Source of the DNA: Shigella phage Sf20
Length of the DNA stretch: 64,000 nt
Sequence record: MF327006
Direction: 5' to 3' (one strand)
Position 1 is the stretch's first letter; every line of letters begins with the position of its first letter. Position numbers and translations under genes: made by a program. Positions 8,941 to 40,830 of the stretch are shown here, piece after piece. Under the pieces are notes generated by a model. That model did no database searches and was not told the DNA's origin. It saw only the letters and a program-made list of their open reading frames with translations.

Positions 8941-10173
8941 TTATACTGCCATTTGAGCGGTGATTGCTGGATGGCTTTGATAGTTGTGAATTTTAAAGTC
9001 TTTCGGAGTCTTTGTCAATACCTCATCTAAAGATTTAAATTCCGGCAACTCAATTGTTGGTTTATCAAACGGAACACGGCTTAACTGTTCCATAACTTGA
9101 TCAAAGTGGTTTTTGTAAATGTGAGTATCTCCACCAGAGAAAATCAGTTCTCCTACCTCAAGATCACACATTTTCGCTATGATGTGAGTTAACAGCGCAT
9201 AGCTGGCGACGTTAAAGGGCAAGCCCAAAAAGCTATCTACGCTTCTCTGAAACCACATGCAAGATAGTTTACCTTCATTGACATAGAATTGCACGAAAGG
9301 ATGACATACACCTAATACAGCATTATGTGTTCCTTGTACGTTCCATGAGTCAATGATGATACGTCGATCCGTTGGATTGTTTTTAATTTGTTCAATCACG
9401 TTTTGTAACTGGTCTTCCCAAATCTTCGGGCGATAGACATATTCTTCATCGTCTTTAGTGCTCGATGTGTCTACGTCCATACTAGCAAAGATCGTGGTAT
9501 CTGGTGCTAAAATATCCCCACCCAGATAATCACTATCAAGCAGATAACCGAAATAACCATCATCTACCCATTCCTGGAATCCCCACAAGCAATATGCATC
9601 ATTAACAAAATTAGATTGAGTCTTCCAGTGATCGGCTACTAAGAATTGATTATATTCAGAATCAAACTCTTCATAACGCATACCACGCCAGATAGCACAT
9701 AAACGGTCTTCTGTGTCATTGGTTGGCGTAAAGTCTTCTACCCACGGGTGTTTAAATGTATGTGTATATTTGCTCTTAACGCGCTTAATTTTGATTTCAC
9801 CATGTGGATGAATCGGTTTGCGTCGCCACGCCATACCATACATATTGCCGACATTATAACCATTGAATCGCAAAGGATTCTTTTCTTTCATATCAAGACA
9901 GTTGCCGCGCCAAATGTCGAAGGCTTCTTCGTCAAACTTGCCGCGTGTAATTTCTTGTAAGCGACGGCGATCAAGTGATCCCTCCATAAACCATAGCAAC
10001 TCGCCAATTACAGAGGCTGTAGCCATCTTTTTAGTGGTCAGTAAGGGGAAACCCTTGCTTAAGTCAATTCGCATTTCTGCACCGAATTTAGAGAGCGTAC
10101 CTACCCCCGTGCGGTCTTCACGAGGCCAGCCATTATCAAGAACATCACGCAACAGTTTCAAATATTCTTTCAT
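8941..10173 (-). CDS. td: thymidylate synthase with ~130-aa internal insertion
   Basis: DRTGVGT, TTKK, ELLWF, RRIIIDSWNV, CHPFVQFY, LGLPFNVASYALL ThyA motifs; 410 aa versus ~265-290 typical. Confidence 0.85.
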   Translation of the reverse strand: MKEYLKLLRDVLDNGWPREDRTGVGTLSKFGAEMRIDLSKGFPLLTTKKMATASVIGELLWFMEGSLDRRRLQEITRGKFDEEAFDIWRGNCLDMKEKNPLRFNGYNVGNMYGMAWRRKPIHPHGEIKIKRVKSKYTHTFKHPWVEDFTPTNDTEDRLCAIWRGMRYEEFDSEYNQFLVADHWKTQSNFVNDAYCLWGFQEWVDDGYFGYLLDSDYLGGDILAPDTTIFASMDVDTSSTKDDEEYVYRPKIWEDQLQNVIEQIKNNPTDRRIIIDSWNVQGTHNAVLGVCHPFVQFYVNEGKLSCMWFQRSVDSFLGLPFNVASYALLTHIIAKMCDLEVGELIFSGGDTHIYKNHFDQVMEQLSRVPFDKPTIELPEFKSLDEVLTKTPKDFKIHNYQSHPAITAQMAV

Positions 10174-11447: not shown

Positions 11448-11475
11448 ATTATACACTATTGCGTTACGCTGTCAA
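11448..11475 (-). promoter_or_regulatory. sigma70-type early promoter
   Basis: Minus sense TTGACA-N16-TATAAT. Confidence 0.55.
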
Positions 11476-12273
11476 CTCTTTTTCAAAAGATTTTACGATA
11501 TACATTAAATTTCTAATTTCGGACGGTGGGATTGTCTCTGTCCACCCGTCCGGCATAACTTTTTGCGATACGTGGCGTGTTTTATTACTAAGTTTTTGTC
11601 GAACAATACCCTCTAATTTTAGGGGTATGTTTCCATCTTTAGTTGTTAACGTATGGAATATAAAGTGACGAACGGAAGACACGCTGGATTGCTGTTTCAT
11701 CCTTTCCTCGGCTTTTTTGTTAGTGATTCCGAACTTATACCCGACAATACAACCCCAATTATCAACCAGTTTTTGTATATAAAAGGTTCCTGGTTTTCTT
11801 TTATCATAACCTCCTTTTTGAGTGGGACATTTCGGACACTGCATATCATCTAAAGATGCGACATATTTGCCATGAACGCAGCAATCCATACTTAGATTCT
11901 TTTCTCTTGCATTAATATACCCATTAATAAATCCATTGGATTTTACTTTTTCATTATGAGAACAAAATTCATCAATTCGTATATTTGCTGATATAACATT
12001 TTTTCTTCTCATTCGTTCCATCCAACATTCTTGACAACCACCTCCCCCATTTTTAAGTATATCGATAGTGGTTAATTTTTGCTTGTGGTTTGGATTTAAT
12101 CCACAAGCAATTTTAATTTTAGATCGTACACCAGACCACTCATAGAATCCCAAATATATCATATCTCCGCTTTTTATTTTTGGCGAATTTAATGCTTCAT
12201 TTTCAATCTCAATTGGAGATTTTGAATTATAGTAATGGATATATTCTATATCTTTAGCAAATCTGGTGTTCAT
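11464..12273 (-). CDS. Cys-rich protein with possible C-terminal GIY-YIG-like (T5orf172-like) fold
   Basis: ORF trimmed to ATG 12271-12273 with SD GGAGGA; CQEC, CCVHG, CPKCP clusters; C-terminal FYIQKL...VGYKFGIT...ERMKQ. Confidence 0.45.
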   Translation of the reverse strand: MNTRFAKDIEYIHYYNSKSPIEIENEALNSPKIKSGDMIYLGFYEWSGVRSKIKIACGLNPNHKQKLTTIDILKNGGGGCQECWMERMRRKNVISANIRIDEFCSHNEKVKSNGFINGYINAREKNLSMDCCVHGKYVASLDDMQCPKCPTQKGGYDKRKPGTFYIQKLVDNWGCIVGYKFGITNKKAEERMKQQSSVSSVRHFIFHTLTTKDGNIPLKLEGIVRQKLSNKTRHVSQKVMPDGWTETIPPSEIRNLMYIVKSFEKELTA

Positions 12274-12300
12274 TTTGTCCTCCGTTGTTTCTATGCTTGC

Positions 12301-12328
12301 ATTATACATTATCTCGGATCAGTGTCAA
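12301..12328 (-). promoter_or_regulatory. sigma70-type early promoter
   Basis: Minus sense TTGACA-N16-TATAAT. Confidence 0.55.
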
Positions 12329-12391: not shown

Positions 12392-13360
12392 TCACATCGC
12401 TAACAGAGAGTCCAGGTCATCCAGATCAGAAGCGGAGGAAGTACCGCCACCCAGGTCCAGAGATGCCATCAGGTCATCAGCGGAAGAATCTAACGCCGTG
12501 CTAGCTGCATTAATACCAACTACAGTGCTAGCTGCGGTCATACCAGAATCGAATGCATTCATCTGTGCGTCAAAATCGTCAAGCTGGCTGTTAATCGCTG
12601 CCGCAGCACTGGAAGCCGCAGCACCAGCTACCATAGAAACGCCCATAGTTTTCTTAAATTTGGTTTCCAGTTCATCGAACGGTTTAAACTGGCTAGGCGC
12701 TACAATCTCACTCAGATCAACCATGTTTTCCATCAGATATTTCTGATATGCTTCGTCTTCAATTTTCGGAAGCTGTGATTGCTGCATGAAACGAGAATCA
12801 TCATAGTTCTGGTGTTTATCAACCTTCTTAGCTTTCAGGAGGAAGTTAGCACCAGAGAACACACAAGTTACATCGACCGGAACTTCGCCCATATCGGTAT
12901 TCACGTTAACCATTGCAACGATCTTATCATAAATTTTCTGACCGAAGCGGAATTTGAATACCTTACCTTCATTTTCTGGTGCTTGAGGATCTTTCAGTAC
13001 CAGAATATTTGCGTAGTAAGACGCTTTACGCTTAATCAGTTGCCATTCGGTTTTATCGGTATTGTACAGGTCTTTTTCGTTAATATATTTGCACACAGGG
13101 CAAGAATCAAAATCACCGTGGGTGCTGGAGCAGTTTTCCCAATACCATTTACCATTAACTTTGAAGGAATGGTTTACCAGTTTCACAATCGGCAGACCGT
13201 CTTCTGTCTTAGACGGCAGGAAGCGAATCAGTGCTTCACCGTTACCTGCTGCATCAGTCTTAATCTTCCACTCTTTCGGATCTTCTTTGGAGAAACCGTT
13301 GCCACCTTTCAGTGCGGCCAGTTGAGCTTGCAGTTTGGAAGAATCTTGGCGTTTAAACAT
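12392..13360 (-). CDS. 32: single-stranded DNA-binding protein
   Basis: [19 protein letters not shown] zinc site, [18 protein letters not shown], acidic C-terminus DLDDLDSLL; ATG at 13358-13360. Confidence 0.95.
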
Positions 13361-13396
13361 ATTCACTATTCCTTCTTTTGATTGATTTACTAGACT

Positions 13397-13424
13397 ATTA
13401 TACAGATTTAAATTTACTTGTCAA
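13397..13424 (-). promoter_or_regulatory. sigma70-type promoter upstream of gene 32
   Basis: Minus sense TTGACA-N16-TATAAT. Confidence 0.5.
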
Positions 13425-14101
13425 CTATTTGTTTCGGCTTTTAATTGAGATATTTCTTTACACTCTTTAACTACTTTAACAAATAATGCTCTTGCTTTTG
13501 CGGCGTCAATAACAAGTAGTTTCTTGTACGCCTTCATTTTAACACTATAAGTTTGCCAAATCAAGTCTTTGGCTACCTTATCGTGTTCGTCGATTATATT
13601 TAGAAAGCTATCTAACAACATAAACGACTCAAACGATATAATCCGATTTTGCAGTAGTTTAAAAATACCGCTTGTTTCGGTTGCGGGATTATATGTAATT
13701 AGCTCTTTAAGAGTAACCCCGCGTTTCTCGGAGAAGTATACCAGACTTTTAATGTCATCGTCAAATCGTGTTGCTGCATCGGTTATCTTTCCTATGTATT
13801 CCATATAAAAGCCGTATGCGTCAACATCAGTGATTTCACCTACCCATGCATCGGTATTAGCTACCAGATTGCTTAGGAATAGGAAGTATAATTCTCTTAG
13901 ATTGTACTTTTCCGCTAATTTTGCGAAATAATACTTATCTCTGCGTTTATTGAATGCGGCATCAGACAACCGCATCCTCCAATTGTATTTTACGCAATCA
14001 TAACGCCCGTTCATGTGAGCTTTCATCATGCAATATAACATATACACAGATTTAGCATTAATTCGCATATCTGGATCTGGAGGAAGACGGTTTCTGATCA
14101 T
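13421..14101 (-). CDS. 59: helicase loader
   Basis: 226 aa; KSVYMLYCMMKAHMNGRYDCVKYNWRMRLSDAAFNKRRDKYYF... matches T4 gp59. Confidence 0.85.
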   Translation of the reverse strand: MIRNRLPPDPDMRINAKSVYMLYCMMKAHMNGRYDCVKYNWRMRLSDAAFNKRRDKYYFAKLAEKYNLRELYFLFLSNLVANTDAWVGEITDVDAYGFYMEYIGKITDAATRFDDDIKSLVYFSEKRGVTLKELITYNPATETSGIFKLLQNRIISFESFMLLDSFLNIIDEHDKVAKDLIWQTYSVKMKAYKKLLVIDAAKARALFVKVVKECKEISQLKAETNS

Positions 14102-14110
14102 ACATACCCC

Positions 14111-14380
14111 TTAAATATCGAGAGTGTTGGTCGGTTCGTCGATCACTCCCTTCCTGAGCGTTCTATTTACTATACATTCTTGTGTGATCTTGTCAATAAT
14201 GGACACCGGAATATACTTCTGATAGTGACCATATTCTATAGAGTTTTCCTCTACAAACTGAGTTGTCGCTTCAAGATAAGTCAATCCCTCTTCAACAACC
14301 AGTTTTTCGATTGCAAGACCGTTTGCTGTTTTATTCGCGGCTTTTACCGCATGTTCATTAAGCATTGAACACCCGATCAT
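14111..14380 (-). CDS. 33: late transcription co-activator
   Basis: IEKLVVEEGLTYLEATTQFVEENSI...NTLDI resembles T4 gp33; start uncertain (14380 or 14365). Confidence 0.65.
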   Translation of the reverse strand: MIGCSMLNEHAVKAANKTANGLAIEKLVVEEGLTYLEATTQFVEENSIEYGHYQKYIPVSIIDKITQECIVNRTLRKGVIDEPTNTLDI

Positions 14381-14633
14381 AGAGTTCTACCGCTTCATCG
14401 CGTTCTGCTTCGAAGGTTTCGCGCTGTTGCTGGTGATACAGTTTAAACAGAATGCCCCACATTTTACCATCTACGCCTAATTCTTCTTTAGCACGCTGTT
14501 TGATCTCTTTGATCTTATCGCCATATGCTTCTTGAATGGTTTTCTGATCGCTGGCTTCTTTAATCAGTTGTGCCAGGGTGTTTCCGTGCACTGCTTCGTC
14601 AAATACTACTTTTTCTTTTTTCTGTTCAGTCAT
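14358..14633 (-). CDS. dsbA: putative dsDNA-binding protein DsbA
   Basis: 91 aa; positional match between 33 and rnh; SD AGAGGG. Confidence 0.5.
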   Translation of the reverse strand: MTEQKKEKVVFDEAVHGNTLAQLIKEASDQKTIQEAYGDKIKEIKQRAKEELGVDGKMWGILFKLYHQQQRETFEAERDEAVELYDRVFNA

Positions 14634-14637
14634 AATA

Positions 14638-15237
14638 TTAACCCTCTTTAGTCATTAATTGAAAACCACGTTCAGCTTTTGATATTTCGCTAGGACTTAA
14701 ATCGTCACCAACATATCCTAGCATCATTTCTCGGATAATGTCAAGTGCTTTTTCATCACCTGATTTTAACTCGAACTCAAGTTCATAATGAGCAGTGTCG
14801 CCCAATCCTTCGCCTACTTTGCCATAATAGAAAGTGTCTTTGCACATTTCCACTATACCACAACCCATATCTAGAGTCAATGACTTGCGATATGTCATTA
14901 CTTGCATTATTGCAGTGATATAGTCGGAGTTTACCCCTAGACAATCAATAAAATGGACGAACTCATCCCAATTTGAAAATGTCATTTCCTCGCGGTTGAA
15001 TAGTCCAGATTCATTATCACCCATTTTGACCATGATCTCTGATTTTCTACAGTCAAGTCGTGCATAAATTCCTTTTTGACGTAGCGCATGATCTTCGGTA
15101 TCATAATAAAATTCGTGTTTTAATATGTTATCTCGGTCTAATAGATTGTACCCGTCATACATTGCCACCCACAAATCACAGATTGTTTCTACACCATCCT
15201 GTGAATGGGCATAGTATTTTAATTCAAGTTCTTTCAT
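14638..15237 (-). CDS. CYTH-domain protein (triphosphate tunnel metalloenzyme; CyaB/YgiF-like)
   Basis: N-terminal ELELKY (ExExK), EFYYDTEDHALRQKGIYARL, YELEFELKSGD, SKAERGFQLMT; ATG at 15235-15237. Confidence 0.6.
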   Translation of the reverse strand: MKELELKYYAHSQDGVETICDLWVAMYDGYNLLDRDNILKHEFYYDTEDHALRQKGIYARLDCRKSEIMVKMGDNESGLFNREEMTFSNWDEFVHFIDCLGVNSDYITAIMQVMTYRKSLTLDMGCGIVEMCKDTFYYGKVGEGLGDTAHYELEFELKSGDEKALDIIREMMLGYVGDDLSPSEISKAERGFQLMTKEG

Positions 15238-15247
15238 ATGTCAACCC

Positions 15248-16195
15248 TTAGAACTCACCAATTTTCTGCAACATTTTAACTAACGCATTTGTTACAAAAT
15301 AGTTATAAATTTTACCGCGTGGTGCTGGTTTAGATTTCTCCCATGCTAACAAAATTTCATATTCGATGTTATCAGGAATAAATTCAAAATCAATAAGTTC
15401 GCGGTTTTCGTCAAAGCGTCGTGCTTCTTCCTCTGTCATCAAAGACTTTGGATCTTCGGCATCGAAAATTTGCTCTAACCATTTGGTTGCAATTGGTTTA
15501 GCTCTTTCTCCTTCCAGTCGTGAGATAATGAAATCACTACGGCACTTGATCGAAGCCACACCGTCTTTTGCGTCACCCTTAACACATTTTACCATAAGGT
15601 CTTTGTAAGGGCTACCATATTTGCATTTCTTCCATGCTTTCTGTACTGGTGCCCACTGTTTCACATTTTTGTATTTGTGTAACTGTGTGTAGTCACCATC
15701 GCCGGAGTTGATTAGCACCTGGCGACCTTCTACAGAAAACTTTTTAGTTAACACAGCGATTATATCATCCGCTTCAACTTTGTCAACCTTAATAACGTGA
15801 TAAGGCATGTTCTCTTTAAACTCTTCGGTGATCTTATTGATCGCAGCAAAGATCATCTCCCAATCACGCGGATCTGCGTCTCGTTTTTCCTTACGGTTGC
15901 GTTTATAGTAAGGTGCGATATCACGTCGCCAGTAACCTTTGCTTGAATCAAAGGCAAGTACCGTAATTGGGTATTGCTCTTTGAATTTTGTCATATTATA
16001 ACGCATGGTGTCAAGGATAAGATGACGAATCATGCCTTCATTAATAGGATCTTCCGGTTTAAAGGTATGCGAGATAGTAGCAATCATAAGCTGCGACATA
16101 TCAATCAAATGCACACCTTCCGGCAGTTTATCTTCTGGATCATCAAAAAAATCATTAAGTGTAGCGGTAGTTTTTGTAAACGGGTTATACGTCAT
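15248..16195 (-). CDS. rnh: RNase H / 5'-3' exonuclease (FEN-1 family)
   Basis: 315 aa; acidic clusters VEADDIIAVL, NSGDGDYTQL; SD GGAGAG. Confidence 0.9.
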   Translation of the reverse strand: MTYNPFTKTTATLNDFFDDPEDKLPEGVHLIDMSQLMIATISHTFKPEDPINEGMIRHLILDTMRYNMTKFKEQYPITVLAFDSSKGYWRRDIAPYYKRNRKEKRDADPRDWEMIFAAINKITEEFKENMPYHVIKVDKVEADDIIAVLTKKFSVEGRQVLINSGDGDYTQLHKYKNVKQWAPVQKAWKKCKYGSPYKDLMVKCVKGDAKDGVASIKCRSDFIISRLEGERAKPIATKWLEQIFDAEDPKSLMTEEEARRFDENRELIDFEFIPDNIEYEILLAWEKSKPAPRGKIYNYFVTNALVKMLQKIGEF

Positions 16196-16197
16196 AA

Positions 16198-16383
16198 TTA
16201 AGTTCTCTCCACTCTCACAACAACATATTCGCCAAACGAGTTAGATACTTCACGATCATACCCGTATTTCTCCATAACTCGCAGAATTGCATTGTTTAAT
16301 TCGGCACGGAAATAATTATAATCCTTATCAGGGATTCTGTCAACTACCCATTTTGCACCTTCTGACAAATCAACTTTAACCAT
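16198..16383 (-). CDS. hypothetical protein
   Basis: ORF track 61 aa; coupled to rnh. Confidence 0.4.
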   Translation of the reverse strand: MVKVDLSEGAKWVVDRIPDKDYNYFRAELNNAILRVMEKYGYDREVSNSFGEYVVVRVERT

Positions 16384-16421: not shown

Positions 16422-16429
16422 TATAAATA
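16422..16429 (+). promoter_or_regulatory. T4-type late promoter (TATAAATA) for gene 34
   Basis: Exact TATAAATA ~28 nt upstream of the gene 34 ATG. Confidence 0.6.
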
Positions 16430-21905: not shown

Positions 21906-23396
21906 ATGGCAGATTTGAAACATGGATCTACTGTAGGCGGATCTCCCATTTGGACGCAAGGAAACTTGACGATCCAGCCAGCGGGGGATCAGCTTTTCTA
22001 CAAAGGTCATAAAATCTATACCGCTTTTGATAGACCTTCGGCTACCGATTTTGATGCTGTTAGTGCATCCGAAGGTGGCACATTTCAAAAGCAAGTTCAT
22101 TTCGAGGAAGGTTTAAGCGTAGGTAGCGCATCGGCTGGAGAAACCAAAAAGAATGGTATCTTTAAAGGTCAGAGCGACGCTGCTAATTTTGACGGCGTAA
22201 GCTGGGGTTTGCATTCATGGAAGTCAATCGGCTTTGTTAATGCCCGTGATGGCGTTATCATGGCGTATATTGACACCACAACGGGCGAATTTAAGTCTAA
22301 AGGGACTATCGAAGGGACAACCATTAAAGACACAGGTCAACGCGTCTATAGCCCTGTTAATAAACCAACGAATAATGATTTAGATTTGGTGTCTCGTCGC
22401 GGTGATACCCTAACAGGAACATATAATTTAAACACTGTCACTGTTAAACTATCGGTTGATTCGAAATTAATTGCAAGGGAACGTGATTTAATTAATTTTG
22501 ATGCGACTAAGATCTATTATGGTAACGTTCTTGATACGTTGGTCTTCCGAAGTAAAGATGAGCCTACCATTTTTGTTAATGGCAGAGAAGGTCGTTTTTA
22601 TCACACCAACAATAAACCAACTAAAGCCGATGTTGGGCTAGGCAATGTCACCAATGATGCACAGGTTAAACGTGCTGGTGATATTATGGAAGGTAACTTG
22701 CAAGCGCCTAGAATGTTGGCGACAAACGATCCTGCTGGTCCTAATGAATTGGTTCGTTTGAGCTACTTTGAGAGAAAATCAATGGTAGCAAATCCAACCA
22801 TCATTGGAAACGTTGATTGGAACACTCTTATTAATCGCGGTATCTATCGTGTGGAAAATGCTGGGTCGGGTACTAATAAACCGTCTGATAGCTATTATAA
22901 TGGCGTTTTGATGGTATATCGCCCAGAAGATGCGGTCGGTACTCGTCGAATTGTTCAGGTGTATTATCCTGAATCTATTGACCATCCGATGTGCTGGCGT
23001 TCGTGTTCTAATGAATCCTGGACTGCATGGAACTATGTAGATCACCGTAAATTAGCCGATATTCGCTATGTTAACGTAACTGGCGATACCATGACAGGAC
23101 CGTTAACTGTTCCGGCTGCAAATGGCGTTAGAACAGCTAAAACTAACTATAACGGGGATAACTGTTATGCGGCGTTAAGCGGTGCTGATGGCACTGCGAT
23201 GATTCACCGCATTAGTGATATTAAAGGGACCGAAAAGCTGGGGATCACCCACGACTCAAAGGTCGTGTTTTTCCGTTCTAGAAACAATACTCAAACCGTG
23301 GACCGCTATCAGCTTTATCATGAAGGTAATAAACCTACTCCGGCTGATGTTGGAGCGGTTCCACTTAATGCGGTGATTGATTTTGGTACTTTCTAA
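21906..23396 (+). CDS. 36: long tail fiber distal connector (extended form)
   Basis: N-terminus MADLKHGSTVGGSPIWTQGN matches T4 gp36; 496 aa versus ~221 in T4. Confidence 0.8.
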   Translation: MADLKHGSTVGGSPIWTQGNLTIQPAGDQLFYKGHKIYTAFDRPSATDFDAVSASEGGTFQKQVHFEEGLSVGSASAGETKKNGIFKGQSDAANFDGVSWGLHSWKSIGFVNARDGVIMAYIDTTTGEFKSKGTIEGTTIKDTGQRVYSPVNKPTNNDLDLVSRRGDTLTGTYNLNTVTVKLSVDSKLIARERDLINFDATKIYYGNVLDTLVFRSKDEPTIFVNGREGRFYHTNNKPTKADVGLGNVTNDAQVKRAGDIMEGNLQAPRMLATNDPAGPNELVRLSYFERKSMVANPTIIGNVDWNTLINRGIYRVENAGSGTNKPSDSYYNGVLMVYRPEDAVGTRRIVQVYYPESIDHPMCWRSCSNESWTAWNYVDHRKLADIRYVNVTGDTMTGPLTVPAANGVRTAKTNYNGDNCYAALSGADGTAMIHRISDIKGTEKLGITHDSKVVFFRSRNNTQTVDRYQLYHEGNKPTPADVGAVPLNAVIDFGTF

Positions 23397-23401
23397 TTTT
23401 A

Positions 23402-23426
23402 GCGGGGATTATCTCCCCGCTTTTCT
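23402..23426 (+). terminator. intrinsic terminator downstream of gene 36
   Basis: Hairpin GCGGGGA-UUAUC-UCCCCGC followed by UUUUCU. Confidence 0.5.
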
Positions 23427-23466
23427 AAATAATGTTATTCTAATAACCGTTTAAGGATTTTATAAA

Positions 23467-26406
23467 ATGGCAGATTTAAGCAGAATCCAATTTAAACGTA
23501 CTAGCACTAAAGGCCGTCGACCTGATGCTGGTACGATGAATCCGGGGGAATTGGCAATCAACCTTGCGGATCAATATCTTCTTACTAAAAATGATTCCGG
23601 TGCTATTATCAATTTAAGTTGTCCTCCGGTTTATGACCGCGATGTTACAATGGCAGGTAAGGTTAAAGGTAATAATTATATCTTAAGTAAAACCGCCAAC
23701 TATCTGGAAGATCAGACAGCGAGAGACCTTAACTACTTTGGTGCTTTCCGTACCAATGGTCTTGACGGTTTTCTCGAACTCACGCTAAACGTTCCTCATT
23801 CTTCTGGTGTTCAGCATGGTCGAGGATTTACTTTCCAGTATGGACACACAGGAAACCGTGTAGAAACTTATGGTTATAATAAAGAAGGACAAAAAGCATT
23901 TAGCTATAAAATGTATCATGAAGGTGATAAACCTACCCCATCGGAATTGAACGTTTATAGCAAACAAGAAGTTGACCGTATGTTTGTTAAAACCGTTAAA
24001 CTTGCTACAGTTCCTGTTGATATCGTTGACGGTTATTTTAAATTAGCAACTGCAATGATTCCGCAAAACGGTCGTAGTGTATTTTTCCGTATTCATGGTG
24101 GTAACGGATATAACGTTACCGCATACGATCAAGTTGATATTGTAGAAATTGTTATTCGCAGTGGAAATAATCGTCCTAAAGGTGTTAACGTTATTGCATA
24201 CCGACGAAATACAAACAAATCATTTGATGTTTTGGCTGTTAATACTTCTGGTGATAACTATGATATCTACGTGAAATATCAGCGTTACACTGATAACGTT
24301 ATTGTTGAATTTGGTAAAAGTGTTGATGTTGATCTGGTAGTCCATGACGTTCCCGACTTTGTTGTTGATCGTCCTGCTGGCGATAATGTTATTGGCGGTC
24401 GCGCGGTAACTCTTTTCAACACAGAAAATAAACGTGGTGTGTTGAGTTTTGACGATAACACACAAAATAGTTATGATATTGTTCACTTGAGTAATGATAA
24501 AGGTACTGGTCGGAAATATATTCGTAAATTCCGCAGTAACTATAATGAAATGATCTGGCATGAGACGGTTCAAGGTTCTACCTATCGACTCGCCACGGGT
24601 AGTACCGATGCTCAGGAGATTCTAACCGTTGAATCTGTTAGCTCAATTGCTGGAACTCATAAAGGTAATATTATTTCTGGACGTATGCTGTTAAATGGCG
24701 GTAGTAATGTTATTACCTTGCGGCGTCCTGCTGGTCAATCCAACCATATTGCGTTTCAAGATAATCGTACTGGAGATATTACCCGTCAAGGATGGATCGG
24801 TTATGCCAATGCTGATACTAACATTTTTGAATGGTATAGTGATGTAGGTGGCAGTTCTATTCGTCAACATATTGACGGACAGATCGAACTTGCAACCGGT
24901 AACACAAAACGCGTTTATACTAACGCTCAATTCATCTCAATGAATAGCGACGCCTACCGCATGCTCTACGGTAATTATGGTGCATTCTGGCGTAATGACG
25001 GCGTTAAAGTTTATCTTCTTTCTACTGCCGAAAATGATAAATTGGGCGGGTGGAATGCCTATCGTCCATTCATTTATGATTTAACTTCCGGTAACGTTCA
25101 ATTAGGCGGTGATGGTAACGAAGAAGCATTAACGTTAGAACGTGCTTCTCGTGCCGCTCGATTTAGTAATGACGTTTACATTAAGAAAGGGCTTTTGACT
25201 TTCGACGCTGGTCGTGCTGGATCTCGCGATTATATTCGATTTAATCATTGGGGTGATAGCAATAATGCTCGTGATAACGTTTTGTACATAGAAGATAGTC
25301 AAGGCCGACATTTTAGTACAGAACGTGCGATGGGTACTGGTGCTCTTAAAGCATACTTCTTAGGCGATCTTGAAGTCGGTGGTAAGTTTACTTGGGGTAA
25401 AAATACAGCTACATCTAGCTTTAATATCCGTGCATGGGGTGCTGATGCTCGTAAACAGGTATTAGAATGTGCTGATGAAAGCGGTTGGCATTGGTATACC
25501 CAACGACCGGGCGGTCCTGGTACTGATGCAATTGAATTTTCTATTAACGGTACGGTTAAGCCTAAAGCAATTCATACTGGCGGCAATATCACTATCAACG
25601 GTGCTGATATTGAGTTTAAACGCGCTGGCAATAAGCATTTATGGTTTAGAGATCCAAACGGATTAGAATTGGGTTTGATTTATTGTGATGATGCTGGTGT
25701 TATTCGTGTCCGTGGTGAGAAGTCGACCGAAGTGTGGAAATTCTCGGCAAAACAGATTCATTTAGAAACGGGTACTGCTGGTAACGGTGTTGGTTTAATC
25801 CGTGGTGCAGTTGGTGGTGGTGCGTGGACTCAATGGAGAGACCGTGGTACTGGCTTACAGGTTGACTGCCAACAATCAGAAAACTCAGCACACAACATAT
25901 GGCGAGCGACTCATCAAGGTAAGTACCATCTTGCAGCAATGGGTGTTCATGCATCTGGTGGTAGTGTTGCTAATACCGTTGTTCGCTTACATGTTCATGA
26001 CTCAAACTATGATTTCACTGCTGTTGGTGACTTCACCGCAGGTCGTAACGGTTCGTTTAACGATGTGTACATTCGTTCTGATGCTCGCCTTAAAATCAAC
26101 AAGGAAGAGTATAAAGAGAATGCCACCGATAAAGTTAATCGCTTAACTGTATACACCTATGACAAGGTTAAATCTTTAACCGACCGTACTGTCATTGCTC
26201 ATGAAGTTGGCATTATCGCACAGGATCTTGAGAAAGAATTGCCGGAAGCAGTAACAACCTCGAAGATCGGAGACGGTGATACACCAGAAGAGATCTTAAC
26301 AATTTCTAACTCTGCTGTCAACGCTCTTTTAATTAAGGCGTTTCAGGAAATGAGCGAAGAATTGAAAGCCGTTAAAGCTGAACTAGCGGAACTTAAAAAG
26401 AATTAA
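23467..26406 (+). CDS. 37: long tail fiber distal subunit with C-terminal intramolecular chaperone (S74-like) domain
   Basis: N-terminus MADLSRIQFKRTS...GELAINLAD matches gp37; C-terminal SDARLK motif (Ser codon 26077-26079) plus coiled-coil tail. Confidence 0.8.
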   Translation: MADLSRIQFKRTSTKGRRPDAGTMNPGELAINLADQYLLTKNDSGAIINLSCPPVYDRDVTMAGKVKGNNYILSKTANYLEDQTARDLNYFGAFRTNGLDGFLELTLNVPHSSGVQHGRGFTFQYGHTGNRVETYGYNKEGQKAFSYKMYHEGDKPTPSELNVYSKQEVDRMFVKTVKLATVPVDIVDGYFKLATAMIPQNGRSVFFRIHGGNGYNVTAYDQVDIVEIVIRSGNNRPKGVNVIAYRRNTNKSFDVLAVNTSGDNYDIYVKYQRYTDNVIVEFGKSVDVDLVVHDVPDFVVDRPAGDNVIGGRAVTLFNTENKRGVLSFDDNTQNSYDIVHLSNDKGTGRKYIRKFRSNYNEMIWHETVQGSTYRLATGSTDAQEILTVESVSSIAGTHKGNIISGRMLLNGGSNVITLRRPAGQSNHIAFQDNRTGDITRQGWIGYANADTNIFEWYSDVGGSSIRQHIDGQIELATGNTKRVYTNAQFISMNSDAYRMLYGNYGAFWRNDGVKVYLLSTAENDKLGGWNAYRPFIYDLTSGNVQLGGDGNEEALTLERASRAARFSNDVYIKKGLLTFDAGRAGSRDYIRFNHWGDSNNARDNVLYIEDSQGRHFSTERAMGTGALKAYFLGDLEVGGKFTWGKNTATSSFNIRAWGADARKQVLECADESGWHWYTQRPGGPGTDAIEFSINGTVKPKAIHTGGNITINGADIEFKRAGNKHLWFRDPNGLELGLIYCDDAGVIRVRGEKSTEVWKFSAKQIHLETGTAGNGVGLIRGAVGGGAWTQWRDRGTGLQVDCQQSENSAHNIWRATHQGKYHLAAMGVHASGGSVANTVVRLHVHDSNYDFTAVGDFTAGRNGSFNDVYIRSDARLKINKEEYKENATDKVNRLTVYTYDKVKSLTDRTVIAHEVGIIAQDLEKELPEAVTTSKIGDGDTPEEILTISNSAVNALLIKAFQEMSEELKAVKAELAELKKN

Positions 26407-26448
26407 GGAAAACTCCCAGGGAAGGGAAACTACTAAGGAGAAACGGCT

Positions 26449-26688
26449 ATGGTCTATAATATCGTCATTGGTGCTTTGTCTAGTTTCGGAATGAAACTAT
26501 TGTCAAAGTTAATTAGTGAAAAGATGCTCACTAAAATTTTCTTCTATTGCGCTCGTCGTCTTGCGGCCTATACCAATACGCCAATTGATGATCGTTTTGT
26601 GGAAGAACTTTATAAGGAGTTTAATAAAGATCAGTCAGAAGATAGTAACGAGCAAGATAAACCTAGTGATAGTCAACTACCTAAATAA
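26449..26688 (+). CDS. hypothetical small protein in the position of gene 38
   Basis: ORF track 79 aa; SD AAGGAG; hydrophobic N-terminus, acidic C-terminus. Confidence 0.45.
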   Translation: MVYNIVIGALSSFGMKLLSKLISEKMLTKIFFYCARRLAAYTNTPIDDRFVEELYKEFNKDQSEDSNEQDKPSDSQLPK

Positions 26689-26721
26689 GAGTACACTGTC
26701 ATAGTTATCTTAGGGCATTAT

Positions 26722-27378
26722 ATGCAAGTTTCTGAAAAAGGGAAAGACTTTGCTATCTCAAATGTCCTGCGCGCTATTTTCACAACTAAAAGCACGGAGT
26801 TGCTCGTACTTCGTGTTTTTGCTGCCGTCGTGTTGTCCATATTGGCATTTGTCGTTTATAGTAAAAACGAGTTATTTGCGCTTTATAAAGAGACTCGTTA
26901 TGAGACTTATGCTCACATTCTCCAGGTAGAGAAAGACCGCAATTTTGATAATGCAGCACAGGAGCAGTTACAGATAGTTCATGTGTCGGCTGATGCCGAT
27001 TTTTCTGCTGTTTTTAGTTTTCGTCCGAAAAACCTAAACTATTTTGTTGATTTGGTGGCATATGAAGGAAAGCTACCGCATACAATCGATGAAAAGAATT
27101 TAGGCGGATTCCCTATCAATAAAACGAGTGAAGAATATCGTAGACATCTTTTAGGTAAATCATATTTTACCGATAAAGATTTCCAGTATATTCCATCAAG
27201 AGAAAAGAAATTAGAGAATATCGATATAGGTTTCATGTATTCTTGTCCTATATTCAATCTCGATAATGTCTATTCTGGTAGTATCGCCATTTCATGGAAG
27301 AATAAACCGGATATTGACATTGAGAATTTAGATACTCTTTGCAATCAATCTGCCAGAATCCTCGGAAGGATTAGATAA
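26722..27378 (+). CDS. t: holin
   Basis: 218 aa; LQIVHVSADADFSAVFSFRPKNLNYFVDLVAYEGKLP...MYSCPIFNLDNVYSGSI matches T4 holin T. Confidence 0.9.
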   Translation: MQVSEKGKDFAISNVLRAIFTTKSTELLVLRVFAAVVLSILAFVVYSKNELFALYKETRYETYAHILQVEKDRNFDNAAQEQLQIVHVSADADFSAVFSFRPKNLNYFVDLVAYEGKLPHTIDEKNLGGFPINKTSEEYRRHLLGKSYFTDKDFQYIPSREKKLENIDIGFMYSCPIFNLDNVYSGSIAISWKNKPDIDIENLDTLCNQSARILGRIR

Positions 27379-27384
27379 CTTAAA

Positions 27385-27416
27385 GGGGAAGCCTTTCGGC
27401 CTCCCCTTCTTTTTAT
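27385..27416 (+). terminator. intrinsic terminator after the late tail-fiber/holin unit
   Basis: Hairpin GGGGAAGCC-UUUC-GGCCUCCCC (one mismatch) followed by UUCUUUUUAUU. Confidence 0.6.
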
Positions 27417-27661
27417 TGGCGCATAGAAGCCCCTGAATCACATTTTGACGCTGTATGATGAAAACATGTAGCGTACCAGTCATCGGCTTGTTTGTCTTCG
27501 TCAGAAAACGCGTAATTGCGTTGTATGCCGTTTTCTACTTTGACCAGTGCAATAGCTGTTTCTGGAAGATCAATCAATCGGACAAAATCACCGTCTTCCC
27601 ACTCCACACGGGCAATATCATAGCCCATCTCAAAGTATACAATCGCTTGTTCTAATTTCAT
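27413..27661 (-). CDS. DUF2829-like small protein (Tad2-family candidate)
   Basis: 82 aa; N-terminal AIVYFEMGYDIARVEW and C-terminal DEDKQADDWYA resemble the DUF2829 pattern; from memory. Confidence 0.4.
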   Translation of the reverse strand: MKLEQAIVYFEMGYDIARVEWEDGDFVRLIDLPETAIALVKVENGIQRNYAFSDEDKQADDWYATCFHHTASKCDSGASMRQ

Positions 27662-27987
27662 TCTGGAAACTTCCCGTAAACATTCTCTGCCAGCTTACGT
27701 GCATCTTTTACAATATCTTTCATATAATGACTATAATTTTTAGCTAGATCAATGATGCAATCAACAAAGAAGTAATAGCGTCGCAGTGCTACCAGCTCAA
27801 CATCTTCAAGATGACCATTTTCTCCAATCGCTGAAATATGTTTAAATTCCTTTCGGATCGCGTCCATCGCTACATTAACTTCTTTTATAATATCTTTCGT
27901 ATTATATGCACCTCGACTAATCAAAATTTTGGTTAGGTCTTCTGCTTTTTCGTGAAAGTTGTCAATTTCAAACTCGATCATAATCAC
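27658..27987 (-). CDS. hypothetical protein, paralog of 28096-28428
   Basis: ORF track 109 aa; C-terminal ...ENVYGKF shared with the paralog. Confidence 0.5.
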   Translation of the reverse strand: MIMIEFEIDNFHEKAEDLTKILISRGAYNTKDIIKEVNVAMDAIRKEFKHISAIGENGHLEDVELVALRRYYFFVDCIIDLAKNYSHYMKDIVKDARKLAENVYGKFPE

Positions 27988-28095
27988 CTCTCATAATTTC
28001 ACGCTGTTGTTTCAACATTTTTTCGTGGTTTGCTAATTCTATACCTTGTAATAGCATAACCAGTGCAATTTTCAATGATTCATCATCTTTCATAA

Positions 28096-28428
28096 TCAAA
28101 ATTTACCGAAAATATTCTCTGTCATAATTCTTGCTTCGTCGATTATTTTCGTCATGTTCATGGTGTAGTTATGATCATTTAGTGCTTTAATAACAACGAG
28201 CAAGGAATCTAAAAACACTCGATACCGGGTATATTCTACGCTATTTGTGAATACCGATGTTTTCTCTACTTTATCGATCAGATAGCCTAAAGCCGATAGC
28301 GCCTCGTTTACTTCCCTTGTTACTTTATCGGCGCTAAACAACACCGGATAAAGACGCGGTGTGATTAACCGCGCTGCCTCTTTCAATTCGGTCGCTTTCC
28401 ATGATTCATATTTGTCATAGTTAAACAT
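28096..28428 (-). CDS. hypothetical protein, paralog of 27658-27987
   Basis: ORF track 110 aa; C-terminal ...ENIFGKF. Confidence 0.5.
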   Translation of the reverse strand: MFNYDKYESWKATELKEAARLITPRLYPVLFSADKVTREVNEALSALGYLIDKVEKTSVFTNSVEYTRYRVFLDSLLVVIKALNDHNYTMNMTKIIDEARIMTENIFGKF

Positions 28429-28440
28429 TGTATAATCTCC

Positions 28441-28773
28441 TTACAGATGAAAACCTGTTACGATCACCGCATCGATCATACCGTTAGGAATAAACGGTTC
28501 GCCATCTTTTATTTCAACTTTGAATTGATGCCATTTCGCTAATACTTCTTCCGGTACACCCAGCGATTCAGCGTCTGCTTTAGTTTCATCCATAATCCAA
28601 CTAGGCTGCATGAGAGCATAGTTTACATAGTCCATTTCTGGGGTCATGTCATCAATGTTAATATATTTGCAGTTGACGCGTTTCAGAATTTCAAATTCTT
28701 TATTGTCAACCTGTACCATGTATAATTCAGTAGTTTCTGGAATCAGTTCCCACACAATCAGTACATTTTTCAT
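28441..28773 (-). CDS. hypothetical protein
   Basis: ORF track 110 aa. Confidence 0.45.
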   Translation of the reverse strand: MKNVLIVWELIPETTELYMVQVDNKEFEILKRVNCKYINIDDMTPEMDYVNYALMQPSWIMDETKADAESLGVPEEVLAKWHQFKVEIKDGEPFIPNGMIDAVIVTGFHL

Positions 28774-39006: not shown

Positions 39007-40830
39007 TTATGATTGCATCCAAATTTTGCGCTGATCTGCATCTTCACTATAGAGCAAATCGAATAGCTCTTTATAGTTTTCCGGTAACGTGATGATCTCC
39101 ATGACAGGATCGTTGATCACGCGATGATAGTCTGATTCTGTGAGCGATGCTAAACCTTTGATATATCGAATGTTGTAACCTTTGATATTATCTCGGTCGT
39201 TCTCGAAATCTTCTAGGTCATAATACCATCGAACATCATCACCTTTCTTTGGTTCAGCAATGATAATAGGTGTTTTGATAAACCGGATTCGTCCATCTTC
39301 GAACAATTCAGGCCAACGTGCAAAGAAAGAGATCAGACTAGGTTTAATAGACCCGATCCCGTCAGTATCAGCGTCGGTCATAATCGCAATATTTTTGTAT
39401 TGCATAACTTCCAATGCATCAACACCAAATTGCAAGCCAGTGATCGCCATGATGTTAAAAATTTCGGCGTTCTTAACGATCTTTGCCTCCGGTTGTTCCC
39501 ACGTTGTAAGAGTTTTGCCTCGCAACGGGAAACCGCCATGTAAATCTTGATCACGTACAGAGATCAGATAGTTGATCGCGGAATCACCTTCCGTCAAAAA
39601 CAGGGTAGTTTCTGCGTCAGTTCCAATAAGGTTAGCTTTAACGTGTTTTGCTACCTTAGCCCGTTTTGCTGCCTTTGCTGCCTTAGTCGCTGCCGCTTTA
39701 TCTGCTGCCTCTTTGCGTGCCAGGACTACAGCAATAATAGGCATGATAATGTTTTCTTTCTTCGCAATGACTTTAGCCAGCTTTTTAAAATCAAGATCAA
39801 TATGACGCTTGATATCACCAGTCGGGTTAGTCAAGCGTTCTTTTGTCTGTGAATCAAAACGAAGGTTAGGCAATTCACGAACAATAAGAATACAGGTCAA
39901 TCCAGATTTAACCGCAGCTTTAGTAACATCAACCTTATATTCTTTCTTGATTCGTTTTACAATCTCTTCACAAAGATCATCTGTCACATAATCAACGTGT
40001 GTTCCCCCGTTTTTGGTAAACAGACCGTTAGCAAAGGATACTGATTTAAAACCTTCTCCCTCGACCGCAGGAACTAGGGCAAGTGAAAAGTTTTTATCTT
40101 CAATGACAAACGGATCATCATTGTATAGTTTAGCATAATCCTTGAACTTACTAACAATACGTTTACCATTAAACTTAAACGTGATCTTAGGAAAGATTAC
40201 GCTCAATGATTGCAGACGATCATGAACAATATCTAAAACAGAGTTGTCCATCATATAACCTTCGAAGTGGTCGAAGTCTGGGCAAAATGTAACCTTTGTT
40301 CCCTTCAATTTTGATGGTTTTGATGACCATGTGATATTTTCAGCACCGTTTGTGCACTGTACGGTCATTTCTGTTTCGCCGTCACAGGTCACACCAGTAA
40401 ACCAATCGCTAAAGAAATTTGACAACGACGACCCCACACCGTTCATCCCTTGCGTTAATCGATTTGTATCATCAAAGTTAGACCCTGCTTTTGTTCGTGT
40501 CCATGCGGCTACAGGTTGCGGAATCTGCGTACCCTCTGGGGTAGTAACCATATGTTGAGGAATACCGCGACCATTGTCTGTTACCGTAACAATATTGTTT
40601 TGGATATCGACGCTAATCACATTGGCAAATTCAAAGTTAGTGCGGATCGCCTCGTCTACAGAGTTGTCGATGATCTCATCAATGATTTTAACCAGTCCAG
40701 GAACGTATGAAATTTTTGTCCATTTACCGAACAGGAAACGTTGATGTTCTTCGTAAGTTGTTGATCCTATATACATTCCTGCACGCTTAAGGACATGTTC
40801 ACGATCAGATAAAATGCGAAACTCACTCAT
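39007..40830 (-). CDS. 39: DNA topoisomerase II large (ATPase) subunit, unsplit 39+60 form
   Basis: 607 aa; GHKL ATPase N-terminus IDEIIDNSVDEA...TDNGRGIP; single continuous ORF. Confidence 0.85.
   Translation of the reverse strand: MSEFRILSDREHVLKRAGMYIGSTTYEEHQRFLFGKWTKISYVPGLVKIIDEIIDNSVDEAIRTNFEFANVISVDIQNNIVTVTDNGRGIPQHMVTTPEGTQIPQPVAAWTRTKAGSNFDDTNRLTQGMNGVGSSLSNFFSDWFTGVTCDGETEMTVQCTNGAENITWSSKPSKLKGTKVTFCPDFDHFEGYMMDNSVLDIVHDRLQSLSVIFPKITFKFNGKRIVSKFKDYAKLYNDDPFVIEDKNFSLALVPAVEGEGFKSVSFANGLFTKNGGTHVDYVTDDLCEEIVKRIKKEYKVDVTKAAVKSGLTCILIVRELPNLRFDSQTKERLTNPTGDIKRHIDLDFKKLAKVIAKKENIIMPIIAVVLARKEAADKAAATKAAKAAKRAKVAKHVKANLIGTDAETTLFLTEGDSAINYLISVRDQDLHGGFPLRGKTLTTWEQPEAKIVKNAEIFNIMAITGLQFGVDALEVMQYKNIAIMTDADTDGIGSIKPSLISFFARWPELFEDGRIRFIKTPIIIAEPKKGDDVRWYYDLEDFENDRDNIKGYNIRYIKGLASLTESDYHRVINDPVMEIITLPENYKELFDLLYSEDADQRKIWMQS

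Follow-up and report, generated by a model that had tools for sequence, protein, structure and literature searches.

Between rnh and dsbA of Shigella phage Sf20 (sequence record MF327006; the 64,000-nucleotide stretch analyzed here is referred to as the window) lies an open reading frame (ORF) of 199 codons, located exactly at 14638-15237 on the minus strand and running from ATG to TAA, and this locus raises the question of which kind of enzyme the gene encodes and how it came to be placed there. An initial annotation, made from the letters of the sequence, had described it as a CYTH domain protein of the triphosphate tunnel metalloenzyme (TTM) type, inserted between dsbA and rnh where T4 has no gene, and potentially able to either make or hydrolyse a nucleotide second messenger or triphosphate. 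As argued below, the product is probably a stand-alone YgiF-like TTM without a CHAD domain, apparently active as judged by analogy with YgiF, and codons 10-150 of the gene constitute a recombination cassette, of which at least four deep alleles are found in near-identical backbones. The genome belongs to Krischvirus (RB49-like).

Domain assignment and fold

The proposed CYTH domain was confirmed over its full length, and all of the motifs quoted in the initial annotation were found in the translation. Pfam CYTH (PF01928) scored 25.9 bits against a cut-off of 23.2, with residues 1-190 aligned to profile positions 1-177 of 179. This score alone is marginal, and it was backed by a profile search of the PDB, by profile-profile comparison and by an AlphaFold model. 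Searching the PDB with the single sequence gave noise-level matches only, and a profile was therefore needed to reach YgiF, which was then the sole match of the family profile, from end to end (E. coli YgiF, E 0.004). Comparison with bacterial CYTH and YgiF-like proteins using hhalign gave a probability of 99.8%. The model (AF2; predicted local distance difference test, pLDDT, 92.8; predicted template modelling score, pTM, 0.86) displays eight long strands and a C-terminal helix, with the strands arranged as an eight-stranded antiparallel beta-barrel tunnel having a conserved basic and acidic lining. Of the two comparisons suggested in the initial annotation, with CyaB and with YgiF, it was the latter that gave the closest fold (20.3, over 183 residues at 2.7 Å), followed by BH2851 (15.9) and thiamine triphosphatase (14.5), whereas class IV adenylate cyclase (AC-IV) came far lower (12.1), as did Cet1 (10.7). 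Pfam recognized no CHAD domain in the protein, the chain ending at residue 199 with only a 4-nt gap from its stop codon to the dsbA start. NCBIfam gave no match, and in PHROGs the protein falls in phrog_14893, a family listed with function unknown.

The roles of the tunnel residues have been worked out experimentally for YgiF and AtTTM3; in YgiF, Glu-160 serves metal site 1, Glu-4, Glu-6 and Glu-162 serve metal site 2, Arg-56 is catalytic, and Lys-69 binds substrate and orients a metal-site glutamate (Martinez et al., PMC4641920). The corresponding residues of the phage protein are E154 for Glu-160, E3, E5 and E156 for Glu-4, Glu-6 and Glu-162, R60 for Arg-56 and K71 for Lys-69, all of which are invariant across the phage family down to 30% identity, together with R82, E84 and R117. 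The acidic tunnel residues on which the initial annotation had staked its assignment (E3, E5, E154 and E156) are hence conserved throughout the family. The ExExK motif is invariant also in the bacterial relatives, and 14 of the 15 residues found to be invariant among 21 such relatives were retained in the phage protein (hhalign). Close to the C-terminus, S186-K-A-E-R-G191 aligns with SKAARG of YgiF, with S and K invariant in phage and bacterial relatives alike. The SK.ERG motif is common to the phage family and YgiF-like proteins, and the model has a helix at 187-195.

Distribution and earlier records

A 2.5-kb region spanning the gene matched 58 phage records at 90-99% identity, and the gene was present in all 58. 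An exhaustive profile search of 1.84 billion representatives yielded only six proteins with E < 1e-10. The closest relatives were all phage proteins of 185-199 residues with a common M.E[LI]ELKYY start and SKGERGY end, and the next tier was made up of stand-alone bacterial or archaeal CYTH proteins and CYTH-CHAD proteins, while a search of IMG/VR returned three near-identical loci only. The dsbA gene lies directly downstream of every family member with a readable contig, including those with 48%, 36%, 33% and 30% identity, and rnh is found upstream wherever the contig extends far enough. The family is accordingly limited to T4-like phages (the Krischvirus-like branch), always just upstream of dsbA. 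Because each readable member, even the most distant, adjoins dsbA, the CYTH gene is an old lineage-specific resident of its slot in one T4-like branch, and an accessory one. The term 'inserted', as used in the initial annotation, is misleading in this respect, with the same slot being occupied in all members and no recent insertion to be seen. Its absence from T4 had been correctly noted: dsbA and rnh are there 8 bp apart with nothing in the slot, and the same adjacency is seen in Tulanevirus and Jiaodavirus, which have the closest rnh outside Krischvirus among the hits sampled.

The CYTH domain call is on record since 2003-2006, with RB49ORF244c entered as "CYTH domain, 0.0026" among the novel ORFs tabulated by Nolan et al. 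2006 (PMC1524935) and RB49p245 described in the RB49 RefSeq record as "similar to P45267, P30871, HI1598, ygiF". A scattered occurrence of CYTH triphosphatases among jumbo phages has also been mentioned, with a possible role in the nucleotide pool (Iyer et al. 2021, PMC7824862). We found no functional study of any phage member in the literature searched, and no description of the dsbA linkage or of the cassette structure in the papers searched.

A recombination cassette between two catalytic motifs

The window and phage Skers are 98-100% identical over rnh, dsbA, gene 33 and gene 59, with DNA identity of 45-62% at approximately 14780-15210. In a codon-level analysis of the window, Skers and P0042-type alleles, codons 10-150 showed a proportion of synonymous differences (pS) of 0.74-0.86 and a nonsynonymous divergence (dN) of about 0.55, as compared with pS 0.02-0.19 and dN ≤0.02 for codons 151-199, rnh, dsbA and gene 33. 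Between allele classes, codons 151-199 gave pS 0.07-0.14 and dN ≤0.017, level with the flanking genes. All of the deep alleles have their breakpoints in common, one directly behind ExExK-YY and the other where the H-Y-ELEFELK strand begins. Intermediate values were obtained for the RB49-type allele (synonymous divergence, dS, 0.46; dN 0.14), which differs from the window allele in discrete tracts, showing that smaller conversions also occur. The G+C content of the cassette, 0.32-0.34 in two alleles compared with 0.39-0.42 in the backbone, suggests import. The window type (≥90% identity) is carried by 23 of the 58 isolate records and the RB49 type by 33, the remaining two being G2494, with a frameshifted RB49-type allele, and one record of the Skers type; metagenomes contribute the P0042 type and an intermediate form. 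Conservation within the cassette was 0.77 at tunnel-facing strand positions, versus 0.51 at outward-facing positions and 0.47 in helices (Mann-Whitney p = 1e-5), and dN/dS was below 1 throughout.

Since the synonymous divergence of the 3' third equals that of the flanking genes, its conservation is better explained by shared recombination history than by embedded signals. An embedded late promoter as the sole cause was rejected, with no copy of the late-promoter consensus TATAAATA within the gene, and so was a sigma-70-like site, which cannot account for 150 nt of identity. For the cassette itself, rapid positive selection or targeted mutagenesis was rejected considering its saturated synonymous sites, a dN/dS below 1 and the G+C content of the two alleles, which bespeaks import; no reverse transcriptase is annotated in any locus examined. 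Homing-endonuclease co-conversion was also rejected, as the nearest endonuclease polymorphism lies between genes 59 and 32, with identical sequence extending for more than 1 kb between it and the cassette.

When aligned with Skers (46.8 kb at 95% identity), the window showed divergence islands in four groups, namely the CYTH cassette, the distal tail-fibre/adhesin genes, endonuclease indels, and shorter patches in a thymidylate-synthase-like (td-like) ORF, orf120, rnh and a topoisomerase subunit. The shorter patches are synonymously saturated (pS 0.54-0.66) with a proportion of nonsynonymous differences (pN) of 0.09-0.17, versus a pN of 0.34-0.39 in the CYTH cassette, giving pN/pS ratios of 0.16-0.26 and 0.49, respectively; at similar pS, the protein divergence of the cassette is thus 2-4 times that of the other imported patches. 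Tract import from diverged relatives is a general habit of these genomes, and the "hotspots" noted by Arbiol et al. 2010 fit such import (PMC2839356). What is distinctive for the CYTH gene is the amount of protein change tolerated or favoured outside of the tunnel, and with regards to this exterior variability, balancing selection on the surface and relaxed constraint fit equally well.

Natural knock-outs and expression

The RB49-type allele of isolate G2494 is frameshifted by a 1-nt deletion at codon ~59, and the Skers-type allele of the metagenomic locus L010 is cut short at codon 106, where CAA has become TAA. Unless sequencing errors account for both of these independent lesions, the CYTH gene is therefore dispensable.

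On the minus strand the order of genes, 5' to 3', is the 61-residue ORF, rnh, the CYTH ORF, dsbA, gene 33, gene 59 and gene 32. Both hexamers of the perfect consensus promoter inside rnh (Table 1) are kept in every locus, including the divergent locus L009 with its changed spacer, and RB49-type phages use such consensus promoters early (PMC2839356). Judging from these promoter sequences, early co-expression of the CYTH gene with dsbA, 33 and 59 is therefore likely. A promoter scan gave 24 promoter-like sites, compared with 10.1 ± 3.9 in shuffles.

Three perfect 12/12 sigma-70 consensus promoters are found within 3.3 kb, all on the minus strand. In addition to that inside rnh, one is located inside the 61-residue ORF (16315-16343) and one upstream of gene 32 (13397-13424), where the RB49 record annotates an early promoter. 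The 11/12 site straddling the CYTH start codon, with the cassette beginning just downstream and with a similar site in L009, may be a real promoter inside the gene or may result from conservation of the ribosome-binding site and of the codons for ExExK.

Proposed function and alternative explanations

In the mechanism that we propose, the C-terminal plug helix would shut one end of the eight-stranded beta-barrel, in which, by homology, the triphosphate end of the substrate would be bound by Lys7, Arg60, Lys71, Arg82 and Arg117. One Mg2+/Mn2+ ion would be held by the substrate together with Glu154, and a second by Glu3, Glu5 and Glu156, the latter ion activating a water molecule for removal of the terminal phosphate. 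The enzyme would most likely hydrolyse inorganic triphosphate (PPPi) or a nucleoside- or organic-triphosphate. The gene would be co-transcribed, probably early, with rnh, dsbA, 33 and 59, and codons 10-150 are repeatedly replaced through homologous recombination, for which the two most conserved catalytic motifs serve as anchors, so that near-identical phages carry deeply different versions of the enzyme in which the tunnel is kept and the outside changed.

Several points weigh against an active YgiF-like enzyme of this kind. The Pfam score exceeds its cut-off by 2.7 bits only, and the activity and substrate of every family member rest on homology. HMMER alone puts Tyr58, not Arg60, opposite the catalytic Arg, through a two-residue shift. 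The loss of the catalytic Arg that would follow from this register is contradicted by hhalign and MAFFT, both of which pair R60 with Arg-56 and imply a beta3-beta4 hairpin two residues shorter than that of YgiF, and we have adopted R60 as the putative equivalent, with a small doubt remaining from HMMER. In the RxR pair of strand beta3, the position of the second Arg is taken by Asp62 in the family and by Asn in P0045; in AtTTM3, the second Arg of the pair is dispensable for catalysis (PMC4641920). Further additions to the family tunnel are Lys40, which is invariant, Lys158, which is mostly conserved, and the aromatic residue Tyr58. Tyr58 is placed two residues before the catalytic Arg, at the spacing of the ring-stacking Trp-53 in thiamine triphosphatase, a tentative parallel that we drew from PMC4641920. 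Given the departures at Asp62, Lys40, Lys158 and Tyr58, the substrate may differ from PPPi. Finally, the idea that the cassette pattern would be unique to the CYTH gene had to be given up, with like patches in the td-like gene, the topoisomerase subunit, rnh and orf120, and special selective pressure need not be invoked.

Between cyclase and hydrolase, which the initial annotation had left side by side, it is the hydrolase that stood. The N-terminal HF motif, which holds the base, is exclusive to class IV cyclases (Vogt et al., PMC8233210), and the CYTH proteins lacking it act as triphosphatases or thiamine triphosphatases (PMC8233210). It is not present in the phage protein, where only Met-Lys precedes an ExExK motif starting at residue 3, and AC-IV enzymes are not the closest relatives in either structure or sequence. 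Because the HF motif is absent and YgiF is much closer in both fold and sequence, cyclic-nucleotide synthesis is unlikely and triphosphate hydrolysis is the supported reading. A CyaB-type adenylate or nucleotidyl cyclase, making cAMP or another cyclic nucleoside monophosphate and thereby reprogramming the host or jamming cyclic-nucleotide immunity, would have the CYTH fold and two-metal chemistry that class IV enzymes (CyaB; Yersinia pestis AC-IV, PDB 2FJT/3N0Z) indeed have in common with the phage protein, and three phage records (AV108, KMB43 and PHB13) do read 'adenylate cyclase'. These labels are automatic transfers and unsupported, however, and many CYTH proteins labelled as cyclases have turned out to be triphosphatases (PMC3440374, PMC8233210), so that we consider such an enzyme highly improbable. 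The label 'inorganic triphosphatase', as found in the Makalu records, is closer, with membership of the YgiF family proper being only partial because the CHAD domain and one tunnel Arg are missing. The suggested role against cyclic-nucleotide defence also found no support, since PADLOC-DB, which covers defence proteins only, gave no match at E up to 1, and the literature searched, including the Kongming and dGTPase papers, held nothing relevant linking CYTH or TTM proteins to phage defence or counter-defence. The same null results count against a wider role in host conflict, in which an immune signal or by-product bearing a triphosphate would be destroyed in the tunnel, for example dITP of Kongming, PPPi from dGTPase-type dNTP-depleting defences or deoxyribose-5'-triphosphate from Cap17, or in which, as a variant, the CYTH protein would itself be sensed or inhibited by the host and frequency-dependent selection would keep its exterior diverse. 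Triphosphate-type immune molecules do exist (PMC13454610, PMC13519002), and such a role would agree with the number of deep alleles in near-clonal backbones, with a conserved tunnel beneath a variable exterior, with the excess of protein divergence over other imported patches, with the other large divergence islands of the window being host-range tail-fibre genes, and with the accessory and dispensable nature of the gene. Yet dN/dS stays below 1, PPPi hydrolysis would leave depleted dNTPs unrestored, and mosaic patches are general and reach housekeeping enzymes, so that a relaxed exterior together with ordinary recombination may suffice. On balance we regard the conflict role as rather unlikely; if true, it would be the first TTM-fold anti-defence enzyme, with its exterior swapped to evade a host sensor or inhibitor.

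Two further possibilities also concern the substrate of a tunnel hydrolase. An RNA 5'-triphosphatase would act on the 5'-ppp ends of transcripts, of the host or of the phage, by removing the gamma-phosphate, and would thereby alter RNA decay (diphosphorylated ends being the substrate of RppH-dependent decay) or 5'-end processing. The viral TTM proteins retrieved by the fold search are mostly RNA triphosphatases of mRNA capping, and the linkage to the late-transcription factor genes dsbA and 33 is tight and universal, but all T4-like phages have the same gene order in this core region, which makes the linkage little informative on function. The Pfam match is furthermore to CYTH and not to the Cet1-like family (PF02940, mRNA_triPase), for which Pfam gave no match, Cet1 is not the closest fold, and the plug helix, by which YgiF/AtTTM3-type enzymes have their tunnel closed at one end (PMC4641920), is conserved, making this function improbable in our judgment. 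Housekeeping of the nucleotide pool, with an NTP/dNTP triphosphatase removing unwanted or non-canonical nucleotides as proposed for jumbo-phage CYTH and MazG enzymes, is a role suggested for phage CYTH proteins in general (PMC7824862) and would suit the setting among genes for replication and nucleotide metabolism (rnh, 59, 32, frd, td and nrd), as well as, by analogy, the thiamine triphosphatase-like spacing of Tyr58. For a housekeeping enzyme, however, neither the highest protein divergence of the region nor loss of the gene in viable phages is expected, and with no base-recognition element identified in the protein we find this role very improbable.

Relation to known systems

Compared with the inorganic triphosphatase YgiF of E. 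coli (PDB 5A60/5A61; tunnel domain residues 1-200), the phage protein has 199 residues instead of 433, in addition to the tunnel and hairpin differences given above, and with an identity of only about 21-23% between the two, the phage gene is not a recent acquisition from the host. Bacteria and archaea also have CYTH proteins in stand-alone form, of about 200 residues (BH2851, PDB 2GFG; metagenomic P0046 and P0195). These are cellular rather than phage-borne, the M.E[LI]ELKYY start is missing from all of them, and those that were looked up show no linkage to dsbA. The viral Cet1-like RNA triphosphatases (of mimivirus, poxvirus D1, baculovirus LEF-4) are likewise virus-carried TTM-fold enzymes. 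With regards to the cassette, T-even tail-fibre mosaicism and phi1/RB49 shuffling likewise involve short conserved anchors and divergent segments swapped between near-identical T4-type genomes; in the latter case identity falls below 90% in 23 genes, of which nine belong to core regions (Arbiol et al. 2010, PMC2839356). The anchors there are PeSL regulatory cassettes or tail-fibre boxes, whereas those of the CYTH cassette are the catalytic motifs of the enzyme itself, within one small gene.

Public records of the gene read "hypothetical", "adenylate cyclase" or "inorganic triphosphatase", and the evidence presented here backs a correction to a CHAD-less YgiF-like triphosphatase. The literature searched held no phage TTM enzyme of bacterial type with an established role, and the present protein is a tractable one, being small and soluble and encoded by E. 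coli phages that are well studied and of which natural knock-outs and several natural alleles are already available in culture collections. The cassette structure and strict dsbA linkage are moderately interesting in themselves, the cassette being a clean case of recombination anchored on catalytic motifs, of relevance when near-identical-looking therapeutic Krischvirus isolates are compared. Should the exterior variability reflect host conflict, it would reveal a new enzyme fold for phage counter-defence.

Features of the locus and other variable regions

Table 1. Positions in the window of the CYTH gene, its functional elements and its neighbours
Feature	Position	Strand	Remarks
CYTH/TTM gene	14638..15237	-	199 residues; ortholog of RB49p245 / RB49ORF244c; PHROG 14893
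ExExK motif (E3, E5, K7)	15217..15231	-	Strand beta1; E3-L-E5-L-K7
Arg60	15058..15060	-	Putative equivalent of YgiF catalytic Arg-56; hhalign and MAFFT register
Lys71	15025..15027	-	Equivalent of YgiF Lys-69; invariant
Strand beta8, E152-L-E154-F-E156-L-K158	14764..14784	-	E152, E154 and E156 invariant
Variable cassette, codons 10-150	14788..15210	-	Barrel core and outer helices; divergent alleles swapped between phages
Conserved 3' third, codons 151-199	14638..14787	-	Right-hand homology arm of cassette
Shine-Dalgarno AAGGG of CYTH gene	15245..15249	-	Overlaps rnh stop codon, 7 nt before ATG; read from sequence
Perfect sigma-70 consensus, TTGACA-16-TATAAT with TG	15759..15786	-	Inside rnh, 549 nt 5' of CYTH start; candidate early promoter for CYTH-dsbA-33-59
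Sigma-70-like, TTGACA-18-TAGGAT (TAGAAT in most alleles)	14715..14744	-	In conserved 3' third, ~80-110 nt 5' of dsbA; consensus match only
Sigma-70-like (11/12), TTGACA-17-TAAAAT	15216-15244	-	Straddles CYTH start codon; -10 in codons 6-8
61-residue ORF	16198-16383	-	phrog_3594, function unknown; between gene 34 and rnh
rnh	15248-16195	-	Pfam
dsbA	14358-14633	-	Pfam
Gene 33	14111-14380	-	Pfam
Gene 59	13421-14101	-	Pfam
Gene 32	12392-13366	-	gp32 Pfam match on syntenic counterpart, and RB49 annotation

The 61-residue ORF was kept in all Krischvirus loci examined and is missing from T4, which is without any annotation between rnh and gene 34. The T4-type late-promoter consensus TATAAATA occurs in two exact copies in the whole window, one of them at 16422-16429 on the plus strand, 29 nt 5' of the start of gene 34 (16458).

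The patch in rnh (15340-15430, minus strand; codons ~256-300, in the C-terminal domain) shows 60-78% identity to Skers, with pS 0.54 and pN 0.09, the rest of the gene being 98-100% identical. At least three versions of this patch occur among the window, RB49 and Skers, and a P0042-type phage carries the window version. Imported tracts relative to Skers were also found at codons 241-365 of the unusually long (410 residues) thymidylate-synthase-like ORF (8941-10173, minus strand) and at codons 1-215 of the topoisomerase subunit (39007-40830, minus strand), with pS 0.59-0.66 and pN 0.14-0.15 for the two, and the patchy mosaicism therefore reaches core enzymes. The largest block that is divergent or unalignable to Skers comprises the distal long-tail-fibre/adhesin genes (23100-28500, plus strand), as expected of host-range determinants.

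Adjoining gene 32 is an ORF of 281 residues (11464-12309, minus strand) without any Pfam match. This stretch could not be aligned to Skers, where a GIY-YIG nuclease gene takes its place, and the RB49 annotation shows an 'endonuclease' at the position, which is probably a variable slot for mobile endonucleases. Between genes 59 and 32, finally, an HNH homing endonuclease is present in Skers, G2494 and locus L010 and missing from the window and RB49 (window 13366-13421 versus L002 5802-6398, L010 7804-8400 and L016 4298-4894), with this polymorphism being located at the position of SegG in T4.
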